A DNA stretch of 64,000 nt from Clostridiales bacterium (GCA_012517905.1 JAAYUE010000034.1:6752-70751); one strand, 5' to 3'. Counted from the first letter of the stretch, positions 39,168 through 43,593 are shown. A program made the numbers and translations. Notes: generated by a model not told the origin, from the sequence alone.

Positions 39168-40232
39168 CTAGCGTTTCCTGCTCCATTTCATCGTGCGAAG
39201 CATCCAATTGGGCAGCGGTTTTTTGGGGTTCCTTTTTCGCAGATCCAGATACCATCCGATTTTCTTGAGGATCGGCACCTTGTGCGTTTCGACGAATTCG
39301 ATCAGCGTGCCGTCAGGGTCTTCGATATAAGAAAAATGCCCGGCCGCTTCGCCCATGTCAAACGTGCCTTCCTCCGGATTGCTGTCCACGGTAAAGGGAC
39401 TGCCCTTTTCTTTGCACAAGGCGCGCATGTGCGTCATACCGTTGATATCCAAGCAGAGATGGATAAACCCGAGGTCGCCCCAATAACGATTTTCAAAGAT
39501 TCTGACCGGCTTGCGACCCAGCGCTTGCACCAGTTCGATATGCGTCGCCCCAAGCAGTCTGGAAAACGCGCCCATTCGCGGCTTGCCGTGTCCCAACCGA
39601 ACCCGACGGAACGGCGTGCCGCCGCCGGGCAGCATGGCAATATCATCAAACTGACCGCTCCTGTCATAGAGCACTGCGTCATACCCCAGTATTTCCCGAT
39701 AAAACCGCATCGACGCATCCATATCCGATACGCCGATGACGCATCCGGCGATGCCCGCCGTCGCAGCGCCGGTGTCCATAAAATATCCGTCCGCCTGTTC
39801 GATGCGGAAGATGTTGCCATAGGGATCGCGAATGTAAAAAGCGCGGCCGCCTTCAGGCGTTTTCTCAACAGCCCCGATGACGCAATTTTCCTGTTTTGAC
39901 AGCGCCTCATACGCGCTGTCGATATCCTGCGTCTTGATGATGGCGGCATAGATGCCCAAATCGCCCATCTGGATGGCAAAATCCGCAGGCTGCGGCTGTC
40001 GGGAGGTGTATTGCCAAATCTCCATCCCGCCGCCGCCTTGCAGGTTGATCGCCAGCACGGCATGGCGGCTCTGCGCTTTTCCGCCTGTATAGCGGGTCAT
40101 GTTGCCCGCGACGCCCGGGTCGTCAAAGACGGGAACGTCGAAGCCCAGCGCCTGCCGATACCAATCCCACGCCCCATAGACATCGGGAATTCCCACGCCG
40201 ATTTGCTGAATACCGCTGATGATCGGTTCCAT
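39168..40232 (-). CDS. VOC (glyoxalase/bleomycin-resistance/dioxygenase) superfamily protein, multi-module
   Basis: The start is ATG at 40232 (MEPIISGIQQIGVGIPDVYGAWDWYRQALGFDV). A second module reads CVIGVSDMDASMRFYREILGYDAV, and the C-terminal module ends HFSYIEDPDGTLIEFVE. The gene lies 19 nt downstream of the SDR stop. Confidence 0.75.
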   Translation of the reverse strand: MEPIISGIQQIGVGIPDVYGAWDWYRQALGFDVPVFDDPGVAGNMTRYTGGKAQSRHAVLAINLQGGGGMEIWQYTSRQPQPADFAIQMGDLGIYAAIIKTQDIDSAYEALSKQENCVIGAVEKTPEGGRAFYIRDPYGNIFRIEQADGYFMDTGAATAGIAGCVIGVSDMDASMRFYREILGYDAVLYDRSGQFDDIAMLPGGGTPFRRVRLGHGKPRMGAFSRLLGATHIELVQALGRKPVRIFENRYWGDLGFIHLCLDINGMTHMRALCKEKGSPFTVDSNPEEGTFDMGEAAGHFSYIEDPDGTLIEFVETHKVPILKKIGWYLDLRKRNPKKPLPNWMLRTMKWSRKR

Positions 40233-40251
40233 TTTTGCTGTCCTTTCTTTT

Positions 40252-41040
40252 TTACCGCAGTCTAAACCGTTTTCGGACCGCCCATTCCCTGAGGCGCTCC
40301 GGCAACCACTTGGAAGCAATTGCCAGAAGCGTCGCTTTCTTTCCCGCCGGATAAAAGGACGAAGGGTTCTTCATGCCGACGATTTTCACGATCTTTTCGG
40401 CAACCGCTTCGGGAGGACTTCCGGAAGCAATTTCGGCGTCCCTGATCCTGCCCGCGCTTTGAATCATATCTGAATACGGCGAATTGTCGCAATGCAGTCT
40501 TTCCTGAACGATGGATGTTTTGATAAACGAAGGCGCAACGGTTACGACGCGAATGCCGAACGGCCGCAATTCCTGCCGGAGCCCCGTTCCGAGCATATGC
40601 AGCGCCGCCTTTGCGGAAGCGTACACGGCTGAGCAAGGCACCGGCATCAGTTCCGCCAGCGAACTTACGTTAACAATCCATCCGCGCCCACGCGCGCGCA
40701 TTCCGGGAAGGACGCGCTGAATGAGCCGGATATTTCCGAACAGCAGCGTCTCATACAGTTCGAGGATCTTCTCCGACGGCGTTTCTTCTATGGCGCCCAT
40801 CTGGCTGGATCCCGCGTTGTTGACCAGCACGTCCAGCGGAGGCAGCATTGCCGCAAGGCGTTCGATGCTGCCCGGGTCCGTCAGTTCCAGCGGCAGATAC
40901 CGGATGCCCTCATATTCCGGATTGCCGGCATCCGGGTTGCGGGATGTGCCGTAAACCGTATATCCGGCCGCGTGCAGCGCCCTGGCCGTCGCCAGGCCGA
41001 TTCCGCTTGAGGCGCCGGTAACCAGCGCTGTTTTATGCAT
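40252..41040 (-). CDS. classical SDR family NAD(P)-dependent oxidoreductase (candidate 3-keto-sulfonolipid/dehydrocapnine-type reductase)
   Basis: TGASSGIGLATA (TGxxxGxG), NNAG and YASAK (catalytic Y-x3-K). The start at ATG 41040 overlaps the upstream stop by 8 nt (ATGCATAA). The specific substrate is inferred from context only. Confidence 0.8.
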   Translation of the reverse strand: MHKTALVTGASSGIGLATARALHAAGYTVYGTSRNPDAGNPEYEGIRYLPLELTDPGSIERLAAMLPPLDVLVNNAGSSQMGAIEETPSEKILELYETLLFGNIRLIQRVLPGMRARGRGWIVNVSSLAELMPVPCSAVYASAKAALHMLGTGLRQELRPFGIRVVTVAPSFIKTSIVQERLHCDNSPYSDMIQSAGRIRDAEIASGSPPEAVAEKIVKIVGMKNPSSFYPAGKKATLLAIASKWLPERLREWAVRKRFRLR

Positions 41041-42307: not shown

Positions 42308-42321
42308 ATTGGTGCTCCTTA

Positions 42322-43593
42322 TCATAATGACATAATCTTTTGTTTCACTTGGGAGATGTCTTCATCTTTTTTCAACAGCAGATGCGGGTTCGCCCGAATC
42401 AAACGACGTTCCCGCGCAAGCGCATCCATTCCTCCGCCGGTGACGTTCAGCATGACAGCCGCATTTTTTTCGATCGATCCTTCCTTTGCTTTCCGAATCA
42501 GCGATGCGAGCGCTACGCCTGCCTCGGGGCAGATATCCCGCCCTTCCAGCGTTAAAAACAGATCCTGTGCCTCCCGCGCCTCGCTGTTTTCGACAGCGAC
42601 GACGTCCCCGCCCGAATCCATCAGCGCGTCGTACAGCCCGCCGATGATGCCATACGGCGGCTGCCGATTGGAAAGCACCTTGGCGTCGATCGCGTCGATC
42701 TGCTGCCGCGCTTCCTGCTCGTCCAGCGGGTCCAGCGCGCGGCTTTTCTTCGCCCACGCTCGGGCAATCGGCACAAACGGCAGGTTCTGAGATACGATGA
42801 GCCGCATCTTCTTGGGGGCGAAGACGCCGCACGCGTTCAGCCGCAGGTTCGCTTCATGCGCCGCGATCGCGCCCGTACCGCTGCCGACCGCCTGAAAATA
42901 GTAGTCGGGAATCTCGCCGATGGCGGCCGCCGCGGAAAGCACCGTCGTTCCCATGCCGTCCCGCCGGCCGACATTCTTGGCGCCGCCCTCGTTGACAAAC
43001 CCGTCCAGGCGCGCGATCGCGCCTGCCATGCGGATCGCGTCCAGATAGTCCGCGCCGTCGCCGACCGCGATGATTTTGACGCACGGGTGGAGGTCTTCCA
43101 GAGACCACAGGCTGTCAAGGTTCGCCTCGGGCACCACGATCACGGCCTGAATATGGTTTTCGGATGCCACTTTCATGAACGCCCGCGCGGTATTTCCGGC
43201 GGAGGCGACCACGAGTGTGCCGCTGTTTATCGGCATTCTGGCGCAGACGGAATACGCCTCGCATTCCTTAAAGGTCCCCGTCATCATATTCGCGCCGATT
43301 TCGGGCCAGAAGCCGTTAAATGTGACATAGAGTCGATTCAGTCCCAGCGCGCGGCCGAGTTTCGTGCTCAGGTAGGTTACCGGCGCGCCGTCCGACTTGA
43401 TAATCCGGCTGACGGGAAGCCAGTCGGAATATCGGAATATCCCGGGCTGCGTTTCCCGAATGCGAAACTTCTCTTGCGGATAGATCGCGCGCATCAGCGC
43501 CAGATTTGGCGACTCCGGGTTTTCCAGCAGCAGACCGTTGTCCGCAAATTCACGATATGTGCCAAGGCATACCAGCTTGTTATAATTCAGCAT
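42322..43593 (-). CDS. threonine-synthase-like fold-type II PLP enzyme, cysteate synthase-like
   Basis: The probable start is ATG at 43593 (GGAGG 8 nt upstream); TTG at 43608 is an alternative. The PLP-lysine context is MMTGTFKECEA and the Gly-rich loop is AVGSGTGAIAA. The ~420-aa length and the lack of a Thr-synthase SFKDRG signature fit cysteate synthase. Adjacency to an alpha-oxoamine synthase and an SDR supports this call. Confidence 0.55.
   Translation of the reverse strand: MLNYNKLVCLGTYREFADNGLLLENPESPNLALMRAIYPQEKFRIRETQPGIFRYSDWLPVSRIIKSDGAPVTYLSTKLGRALGLNRLYVTFNGFWPEIGANMMTGTFKECEAYSVCARMPINSGTLVVASAGNTARAFMKVASENHIQAVIVVPEANLDSLWSLEDLHPCVKIIAVGDGADYLDAIRMAGAIARLDGFVNEGGAKNVGRRDGMGTTVLSAAAAIGEIPDYYFQAVGSGTGAIAAHEANLRLNACGVFAPKKMRLIVSQNLPFVPIARAWAKKSRALDPLDEQEARQQIDAIDAKVLSNRQPPYGIIGGLYDALMDSGGDVVAVENSEAREAQDLFLTLEGRDICPEAGVALASLIRKAKEGSIEKNAAVMLNVTGGGMDALARERRLIRANPHLLLKKDEDISQVKQKIMSL

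Follow-up and report, generated by a model that had tools for sequence, protein, structure and literature searches.

A probable operon for a capnine-type sulfonated long-chain base in Clostridia

Introduction

Can the base of a sulfonolipid be made from a compact gene cluster outside Bacteroidota? The question is raised by a 64,000-nucleotide stretch of DNA from a Clostridiales bacterium (GCA_012517905.1, JAAYUE010000034.1:6752-70751), hereafter the window. An earlier note on it had proposed that positions 39168-43593 carry a compact three-gene operon for capnine-type sulfonolipid synthesis, with genes for a cysteate synthase-like pyridoxal phosphate (PLP) enzyme, an alpha-oxoamine synthase and a short-chain dehydrogenase/reductase (SDR). 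These genes are here called A, B and C.

Sulfonolipids act on host immunity (TLR4) and are inversely linked to inflammatory bowel disease (PMC11525784). Their synthesis appears to be limited to Bacteroidota (PMC10191378), and the genes are scattered and unclustered in C. gleum and Alistipes finegoldii (PMC11211663). One Firmicutes_A species is listed, without comment, among 9,633 prioritised genomes (PMC11525784). For Firmicutes, another survey gives only loose homologue counts (PMC11211663). In the open literature, subscription-only articles not being covered, we found no paper on a sulfonolipid-base cluster outside Bacteroidota. The earlier note's claim that such a clustered pathway is undescribed in Gram-positive anaerobes agrees with the searchable literature.

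Results

The cysteate synthase and the condensing enzyme

Our analysis indicated that A, B and C belong to a larger unit on the minus strand, at 45816..39168, which probably makes a capnine-type sulfonated long-chain base. Its genes are named G, F, E, A, B, C and D in order of transcription (Table 1). The assignments of A and B carry this reading.

A contains the Pfam PALP domain, a fold-type II PLP domain. It scores 437.5 bits on the NCBIfam equivalog model TIGR03844 (cysteate_syn), above the cutoff of 324.9. Threonine synthase models, with cutoffs of 167-421, give it no more than 91 bits (cutoff 303 for the best-scoring model). Among solved structures the sole strong relative is 9k3c, annotated 'Cysteate synthase', at 442 bits, and the best threonine synthase is found at 44 bits. 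These scores rule out A as a threonine synthase. The candidate PLP lysine, K109, is located in a TFKE motif. All 19 homologues compared keep it, and its motif lines up with the SFKE of 9k3c. A is predicted from its sequence to convert O-phosphoserine and sulfite to L-cysteate. The earlier note's cysteate synthase call stands, with TIGR03844 passed and no grouping with bona fide threonine synthases. Its label 'CapA' was imprecise, because A is of the archaeal/Alistipes type. CapA of Capnocytophaga is reported by Liu et al. (2022) to be cystathionine-beta-synthase-like. The archaeal-type cysteate synthase is no more than a distant relative of CapA (PMC10191378).

B contains the Pfam Aminotran_1_2 domain and is closest to solved cysteate acyltransferases. 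It matches 28eh (cysteate-C-fatty acyltransferase, CFAT) at 377 bits and 7u7h (SulA of A. finegoldii) at 356 bits. Other solved synthases score lower, with 251 bits for serine palmitoyltransferase (Spt), 231 for Kbl, 183 for ALAS and 178 for BioF. Sequence identity is 46% to SulA and CFAT and 34% to Spt. On every BioF, Kbl, Spt and ALAS model B falls below the cutoff. All seven active-site residues compared are kept: N60, H147, D224, H227, K258, K288 and R383 of B correspond to N53, H140, D217, H220, K251, K281 and R376 of SulA. The active site of SulA differs from that of Spt at one position, Lys281 in place of Ala, which has been proposed as the discriminator (Radka et al., PMC9304779). Its equivalent in B, K288, is found in a FAKSLPM motif exactly 30 residues past the catalytic K258. 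Every cluster-linked synthase from Clostridia and Spirochaetes has lysine at this position, whereas Spt has Ala and Kbl-like paralogues have Asn. In a neighbor-joining tree, the cluster-linked Clostridia/Spirochaete synthases form the sister clade of SulA (7u7h) and 28eh, apart from Spt and from the Kbl-like paralogues that are present in Spirochaete loci. On the model cutoffs, bit scores, tree and diagnostic lysine we reject B as Spt, Kbl or BioF. B is of the SulA/CapB type and is predicted to use cysteate and a long-chain acyl thioester. The phylogeny and the active-site comparison proposed in the earlier note bear out its SulA/CapB call.

Gene order and its conservation

The three genes A, B and C are all on the minus strand, head to tail, as read from the open reading frames (ORFs) of the window. 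The 14-nt gap between A and B and the 8-nt overlap between B and C given in the earlier note are correct. An upstream alternative ATG of B at 42325 would replace the gap with a 4-nt overlap; the gene call on the organism's own contig is the 424-aa form. The genes and spacing of the proposed three-gene operon are therefore real, but its interval also holds a fourth co-directional gene, D, which encodes a protein of the vicinal oxygen chelate (VOC) fold. Position 39168 is the stop codon of D, not the end of the SDR gene. In addition, G, F and E precede A in the same direction, with overlaps or a 33-nt gap. The junctions are -7 (G-F), -14 (F-E), +33 (E-A), -4 or +14 (A-B), -8 (B-C) and +19 nt (C-D). 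Because of these tight junctions, a hairpin with a T-run just 5' of G and another about 130 nt 3' of D, the transcription unit most likely consists of all seven genes.

Table 1. Positions of the operon genes and associated features, counted from the first nucleotide of the window.
Feature	Position	Strand	Basis
LytTR-family response regulator	47323..48090	-	Pfam Response_reg and LytTR
AgrC-like histidine kinase (GHKL HATPase_c_5)	45993..47342	-	Pfam PF14501
Four direct 9-mers (GTCGYRAAY-like), 20-21 bp spacing: GTCGCGAAT, GTCGCGAAT, GTCGCAAAC, GTCGTGAAT	45933..46003	-	sequence reading
Extended -10, TGtTATAAT, without a good -35	45900..45908	-	consensus match only; conserved in L082
12-bp hairpin and T-run between the -10 and the ribosome-binding site of gene G	45854..45881	-	terminator-like scan and sequence
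Gene G, soluble ABC-type ATPase, 273 aa from ATG 45816	44995..45816	-	Pfam ABC_tran
Gene F, CobW/HypB/UreG-type (G3E) GTPase	44297..45001	-	Pfam cobW; best solved relatives UreG and HypB
Gene E, N-terminal [4Fe-4S] domain PF04060 and Cys/His-rich C-terminal beta domain	43627..44310	-	
Gene A, cysteate synthase, archaeal/Alistipes type, 423 aa from ATG 43593	42322..43593	-	TIGR03844, 9k3c
Gene B, SulA/CapB-type cysteate-C-fatty acyltransferase, 424 aa	41033..42307	-	active-site residues, solved relatives
Gene C, classical SDR, predicted 3-ketocapnine reductase, 262 aa	40252..41040	-	motifs; role from position
Gene D, two-domain (four-module) VOC/glyoxalase-fold protein, 354 aa	39168..40232	-	Pfam Glyoxalase
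Likely operon terminator, strong hairpin AAAAACAACCGCTC / GAGCGGTTGTTTTT and T-run	39005..39040	-	sequence reading; not in the terminator-like scan

The gene order is conserved in other lineages. A contig scan with a cysteate synthase alignment gave a best set of 80 loci, mostly from Bacteroidota. The closest Clostridia loci (L081, L082/L083, L085 and L089) were not among them and were recovered singly by exact-protein look-up. Most of the fetched loci are from Bacteroidota, including Alistipes, Odoribacter and Prolixibacteraceae, and their cysteate synthases share 50-57% identity with A. The order A-B-C-D is found in the cultured Sporobacter termitidis DSM 10068 (Oscillospiraceae, L081), with 57-73% identity to the four window proteins. 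It is also found in the closest metagenome-assembled genome (MAG; L082/L083) and in a 4.6-Mb contig (L089). An Anaerofustis MAG (L085) has G-F-E-A-B, and its contig ends about 1 kb past B.

In Spirochaetes, a B homologue (56-68% identity) comes immediately after A in six loci, and D is located within a few kb in five of the six. One Treponemataceae locus reads A-B-D without an SDR gene. In a seventh locus from this phylum (L050), D and an SDR gene adjoin A, and the contig ends past A. Recurrence of the order across Clostridia and the A-B adjacency in Spirochaetes place the arrangement beyond chance. Among the fetched Bacteroidota loci, no SulA-type synthase is found within 8 kb of the cysteate synthase, in agreement with the published scatter of these genes (PMC11211663). 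The neighboring synthase in one of them (L061) is 29% identical to B and has Asn at the diagnostic position, and is therefore Kbl-like. Contigs of matching length in the searches with A, D and E suggest that A and D may be on one contig in at least 15 further lineages, at 60-80% identity, several of them also with E. Taxonomic placement of the host by the cluster genes themselves would be circular, but a ZnuB-like permease encoded outside the cluster in the window has a relative of at least 90% identity labelled 'Clostridiales bacterium', in keeping with a Clostridia-like host.

The SDR

C has the motifs of a classical SDR, TGASSGIG at residue 8, NNAG at residue 74 and YASAK at residue 140, and matches Pfam adh_short. 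On the KdsR (3-ketodihydrosphingosine reductase) model NF049977 it scores 156 bits and fails the cutoff of 400. Its best match is the generic PRK06179. The earlier note had described a classical SDR acting as a CapC-type reductase. The SDR motifs are intact, but orthology to KdsR is not supported. From its position, C is predicted to be the 3-ketocapnine reductase.

The VOC protein

D matches Pfam Glyoxalase in two stretches. The AlphaFold2 model (pLDDT 90.5) has four modules. The best Foldseek matches are monomeric two-domain glyoxalase I, GLOD4 and PcpA, with TM scores of about 0.55, E-values of about 1e-13 and about 14% identity. By sequence, solved structures give only marginal single-domain VOC matches. 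Many Arg and Lys residues are invariant in the D family, and a basic C-terminal tail is kept. Q10, E71 and E312/E315 are conserved, and H258 is replaced by Gln in 4 of 26 members. The candidate Gln/Glu/His/Glu positions Q10, E71, H258 and E312 resemble the metal ligands of human glyoxalase I.

The family is compact: of 1.8 billion representatives searched, 144 clusters (50% identity, E <= 1e-30) belong to it. The Clostridia proteins are 56-62% identical to named relatives, nearly all from Bacteroidota except one Treponema MAG and Sporobacter. A metagenome scan with D returned 80 loci, to which the following neighbor counts refer. An SDR gene is located immediately 5' of the D homologue in 37, and all five SDRs tested belong to NF004825/PRK06181, above its cutoff. 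A PlsC-like acyltransferase is near the D homologue in 18, several of them ordered acyltransferase-SDR-VOC. An alpha-oxoamine synthase match is found in 10, seven of which are 42-67% identical to B. The five full-length matches that could be checked all carry the SulA lysine (L106, L131, L159, L162 and L167). D thus accompanies sulfonolipid genes repeatedly in three phyla, as seen in Clostridia, Spirochaetes and Bacteroidota-like contigs.

We speculate that D does glyoxalase I- or epimerase-type enolate chemistry on an alpha-amino ketone intermediate. Such a role would suit the location of D beside the reductase gene. It would also suit the observation that 3-ketocapnine reductases (KCRs) acting alone give two product peaks, which the authors speculated to be epimers (PMC11211663). 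Searches of full-text literature returned nothing relevant that joins sulfonolipids with a glyoxalase.

Several neighborhoods of D homologues are of separate interest. The series PlsC-like acyltransferase (PF01553), PRK06181-type SDR and VOC recurs in six metagenome loci (L145, L148, L150, L152, L158 and L170), and this acyltransferase is a candidate for the enzyme that acylates capnine. A tblastn search for it gave no match in the window, nor in any of the loci from Clostridia and Spirochaetes. One metagenome contig (L166, 6785..16324) contains, in one direction, genes for VOC, a SulA-like synthase, an SDR, HdrC/HdrB/HdrA-like proteins, a 605-aa ORF and cysteate synthase. It may be another link of sulfonolipid genes to a redox module. 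In a 2.7-Mb contig syntenic with Sporobacter (L090, 8001..9083), the VOC gene stands alone at the site of the four-gene cluster of S. termitidis and L089, which suggests that the other three genes were lost or relocated.

The G-F-E trio

G, F and E are 68-70%, 68-72% and 57-60% identical, respectively, to homologues in Methanobacteriales. The trio immediately precedes the cysteate synthase gene in the window, L082/L083, L085 and L089. In four Methanobacteriales loci the equivalent genes directly follow ComA in the order ComA-ABC-CobW-FeS (L171, L172 and L173, about 6400..9700; L176, 4687..7681), with 57-72% identity to the window trio in L171-L173. A fifth methanogen locus (L175) has an integrase in place of ComA and the ABC gene. 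The E family has 522 matches, mostly from Methanobacteriales. The named members, 55-61% identical, come from one Anaerofustis MAG and from archaea (Methanobacterium, Methanothermobacter, Methanobacteriaceae and one unclassified euryarchaeote). The N-terminal domain of E matches the [4Fe-4S] type of corrinoid/Fe-S protein and RnfB. No significant structural match was found for its C-terminal beta domain, which has invariant Cys and His residues. The 57-72% identity between the window and methanogen proteins implies that the G-F-E block was transferred between domains.

ComA uses phosphoenolpyruvate and sulfite, and cysteate synthase uses O-phosphoserine and sulfite. The two enzymes are unrelated, and sulfite is their only common substrate. 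Two independent placements of G-F-E beside sulfite-using enzymes therefore point to sulfite supply or handling. A role in sulfite supply is suggested by this gene context, and we put it forward tentatively. The trio contains no recognizable sulfite reductase domain, which argues against such a role. So does one locus (L174, 5417..7660) that has the trio and no sulfite-using enzyme within 7 kb. It encodes a type IX secretion system-tail protein and is probably from Bacteroidota, and its trio is beside Crp- and Rrf2-type regulators. The lack of Methanococcales among the named relatives and the separation of the trio from the cluster in S. termitidis speak against the sulfite role as well.

The origin of sulfite for coenzyme M in methanogens grown on sulfide has been described as unclear. 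Reverse sulfite reductase and homologues of APS/PAPS reductase have been suggested as sources (PMC6286981). A literature search by locus tag on the Methanothermobacter genes beside comA found nothing.

Cysteate synthase is also found in other settings. In a widespread 'Clostridia bacterium' lineage (L086 and L087) it has no neighboring alpha-oxoamine synthase. In L087 (8001..11282) it is followed by genes for an AprA-like flavoprotein (FAD_binding_2) and a ferredoxin, which suggests another use of cysteate and another source of sulfite. The AprA-like neighborhood of L087 and the Hdr-like one of L166 both look like sulfite sources.

Regulation and flanking sequence

A gene pair for an AgrC-like histidine kinase and a LytTR response regulator precedes the operon in the window and also in L082/L083. 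The direct repeats stand between the kinase stop codon and the extended -10. Three of the five matches to GTCGYRAAT in the whole window fall in the repeat region, and the repeats are conserved in L082. LytTR regulators habitually bind direct repeats. The four repeats are predicted to be a LytTR operator, and the response regulator likely regulates the operon. The leader hairpin at 45854..45881 is possibly an attenuator or the terminator of the kinase gene. It is not a known riboswitch, since Rfam at gathering thresholds gave no match in the whole window. No AgrB/AgrD-like ORF was seen among the small ORFs upstream of the regulator, which were inspected by eye only.

About 1 kb between the regulator gene and a DUF364/DUF4213 'heavy-metal chelation' gene (48090..49100) has about 43% GC and no convincing ORF. 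On the other side of the operon, a giant plus-strand ORF (11..35278) encodes 11,755 aa, among which A, T, G, S and V are abundant, and is open at the window start. Its GC content of 59-66% compares with 43-58% elsewhere in the window. Pfam searches with three 1,500-aa pieces had no match at 1e-5, and self-BLAST at 1e-10 revealed no repeats within the ORF. The product is probably a very large surface protein whose type has not been described before.

Discussion

The sequence evidence supports the capnine reading of the earlier note, and each computational test it had named came out in favor. In the pathway we propose, A would add sulfite to O-phosphoserine to give L-cysteate, with G-F-E serving its sulfite requirement. 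B would condense cysteate with a long-chain acyl thioester. Capnine would then be formed by C, through NAD(P)H-dependent reduction of the 3-keto group. D, whose basic tail is probably membrane-seeking, would act on a pathway intermediate, by a proton transfer (enolate chemistry) that is our guess. The LytTR two-component system probably turns the operon on through the four direct repeats 5' of the extended -10. The sequence itself shows the families of A and B and a conserved gene order, and a long acyl chain and accumulation of a lipid in the organism are inferred. In a broader proposal, G-F-E could be a sulfite module of strict anaerobes, spread by inter-domain transfer between Clostridia and Methanobacteriales, which would feed cysteate synthase in the former and, through ComA, the first step of coenzyme M synthesis in the latter. 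D could separately be an unrecognized conserved step of sulfonolipid synthesis in Bacteroidota, Spirochaetes and Clostridia. We hold this proposal to be possible rather than probable.

The proposed pathway shares features with several known systems. Like that of A. finegoldii, it has a cysteate synthase of the same type, a condensing enzyme (46% identical) with a counterpart of K281, and keto reduction by an SDR. Unlike there, where the genes are scattered, they form one operon here with the VOC gene and the trio, in a Clostridia host. Orthology of C to any validated KCR is also unsupported, C being assigned by position. The CapA-CapB-CapC pathway of Capnocytophaga and Ornithobacterium runs through these three chemical steps too, and its condensing enzyme is homologous to B (28eh, 377 bits), whereas the first step here is catalyzed by another enzyme lineage, to which CapA is only a distant relative (PMC10191378). 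In bacterial sphingolipid synthesis (Spt, KdsR and ceramide synthase), an amino acid and a fatty acyl thioester are likewise joined by PLP-dependent decarboxylative condensation, and an SDR then reduces the product. The amino acid here is predicted to be cysteate rather than serine (Lys288 for Ala), and the locus has no ceramide synthase-type gene.

Coenzyme M is made through ComA in class I methanogens and through cysteate synthase in Methanosarcinales and Methanomicrobiales. The operon shares with these pathways the TIGR03844 family and the ABC/CobW/Fe-S trio, which flanks ComA in Methanobacteriales and cysteate synthase here. It differs in having no ComB, ComC or ComDE, and the cysteate is predicted to enter a lipid base and not sulfopyruvate. 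D shares the four-module VOC fold with glyoxalase I, GLOD4 and PcpA. It differs from them in its low identity (about 14%), in the Gln in place of H258 in some members and in the extra basic C-terminal tail. Compared with the Bacteroidota pathway, the Clostridia and Spirochaete hosts, the compact operon, the non-orthologous SDR, the absence of an N-acyltransferase at the locus and the two extra modules are different.

Several observations weigh against the capnine operon as proposed. The SDR subfamily of C (PRK06179) differs from that paired with VOC in the metagenome loci (PRK06181), and C is missing from the Spirochaete clusters. The trio is not adjacent to A-D in S. termitidis, and its named archaeal relatives include no Methanococcales, which also use ComA, so that it is not universal among ComA users. 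Neither the operon nor its surroundings contain an N-acyltransferase gene. The locus alone therefore does not predict a full N-acyl sulfonolipid, and the acyltransferase gene is possibly located elsewhere in the genome, unlinked. Bacteroidota sulfonolipid sits in the outer membrane, and monoderms have no such membrane. In addition, the sequence gives no acyl chain length.

Some of these points would also fit a different product. If the acyl chain were shorter, the operon could make a sulfonated amino ketone or alcohol that serves as a diffusible signal or specialized metabolite, produced when needed under AgrC/LytTR control, rather than as a bulk membrane lipid. CqsA/LqsA synthases make alpha-hydroxyketone autoinducers, and B scores 194 bits on a CqsA-type model. 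The AgrC-like kinase, the LytTR regulator and the predicted direct-repeat operator immediately upstream are in keeping with a signal, as are the missing N-acyltransferase and a chain length that cannot be predicted from sequence. However, B is far closer to the fatty acyl-using SulA and CFAT (356-377 bits), the basic tail of D is of the kind expected for membrane association, and the same genes adjoin lipid acyltransferases in Bacteroidota-like contigs. We consider a signal unlikely.

Two other readings separate the functions of A and B, and both are very improbable. B could be a serine palmitoyltransferase that makes ordinary sphingoid bases, with the cysteate synthase meeting another need for sulfonate. 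Its score of about 300 bits on Spt models and the weak match of C to the 3-ketodihydrosphingosine reductase model would agree with this. All Spt models are nevertheless far under their cutoffs (309 versus 640), the diagnostic residue and the identities of B side with SulA and CFAT, and wherever a fetched locus outside Bacteroidota contains both A and B, the two are neighbors. Of the explanations considered, we give the least credence to one in which B, C and D are BioF/Kbl-type housekeeping neighbors with no relation to A, whose cysteate feeds coenzyme M, sulfolactate or taurine-type metabolism. TIGR03844 was defined on the coenzyme M pathway, and some Clostridia (L002 and L086/L087) have a cysteate synthase with no adjoining alpha-oxoamine synthase. 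Against it, the locus contains no sulfopyruvate decarboxylase or other com genes and B is under the BioF and Kbl cutoffs. The stop/start overlaps and the gene order conserved across two phyla also favor one pathway. A capnine-type base thus remains our preferred product.

Sulfonolipids are taken as markers of Bacteroidota. Their source would be broader if Clostridia and Spirochaetes, with the cultured S. termitidis among them, have a full clustered pathway. The operon would also serve as a ready-made unit for heterologous production. Its clustering exposes a candidate for a missing enzyme, the VOC protein D, that scattered genes in Bacteroidota had hidden. If the sulfite role is true, G-F-E names candidate genes for the sulfite source of sulfide-grown methanogens, for coenzyme M and other sulfonates.

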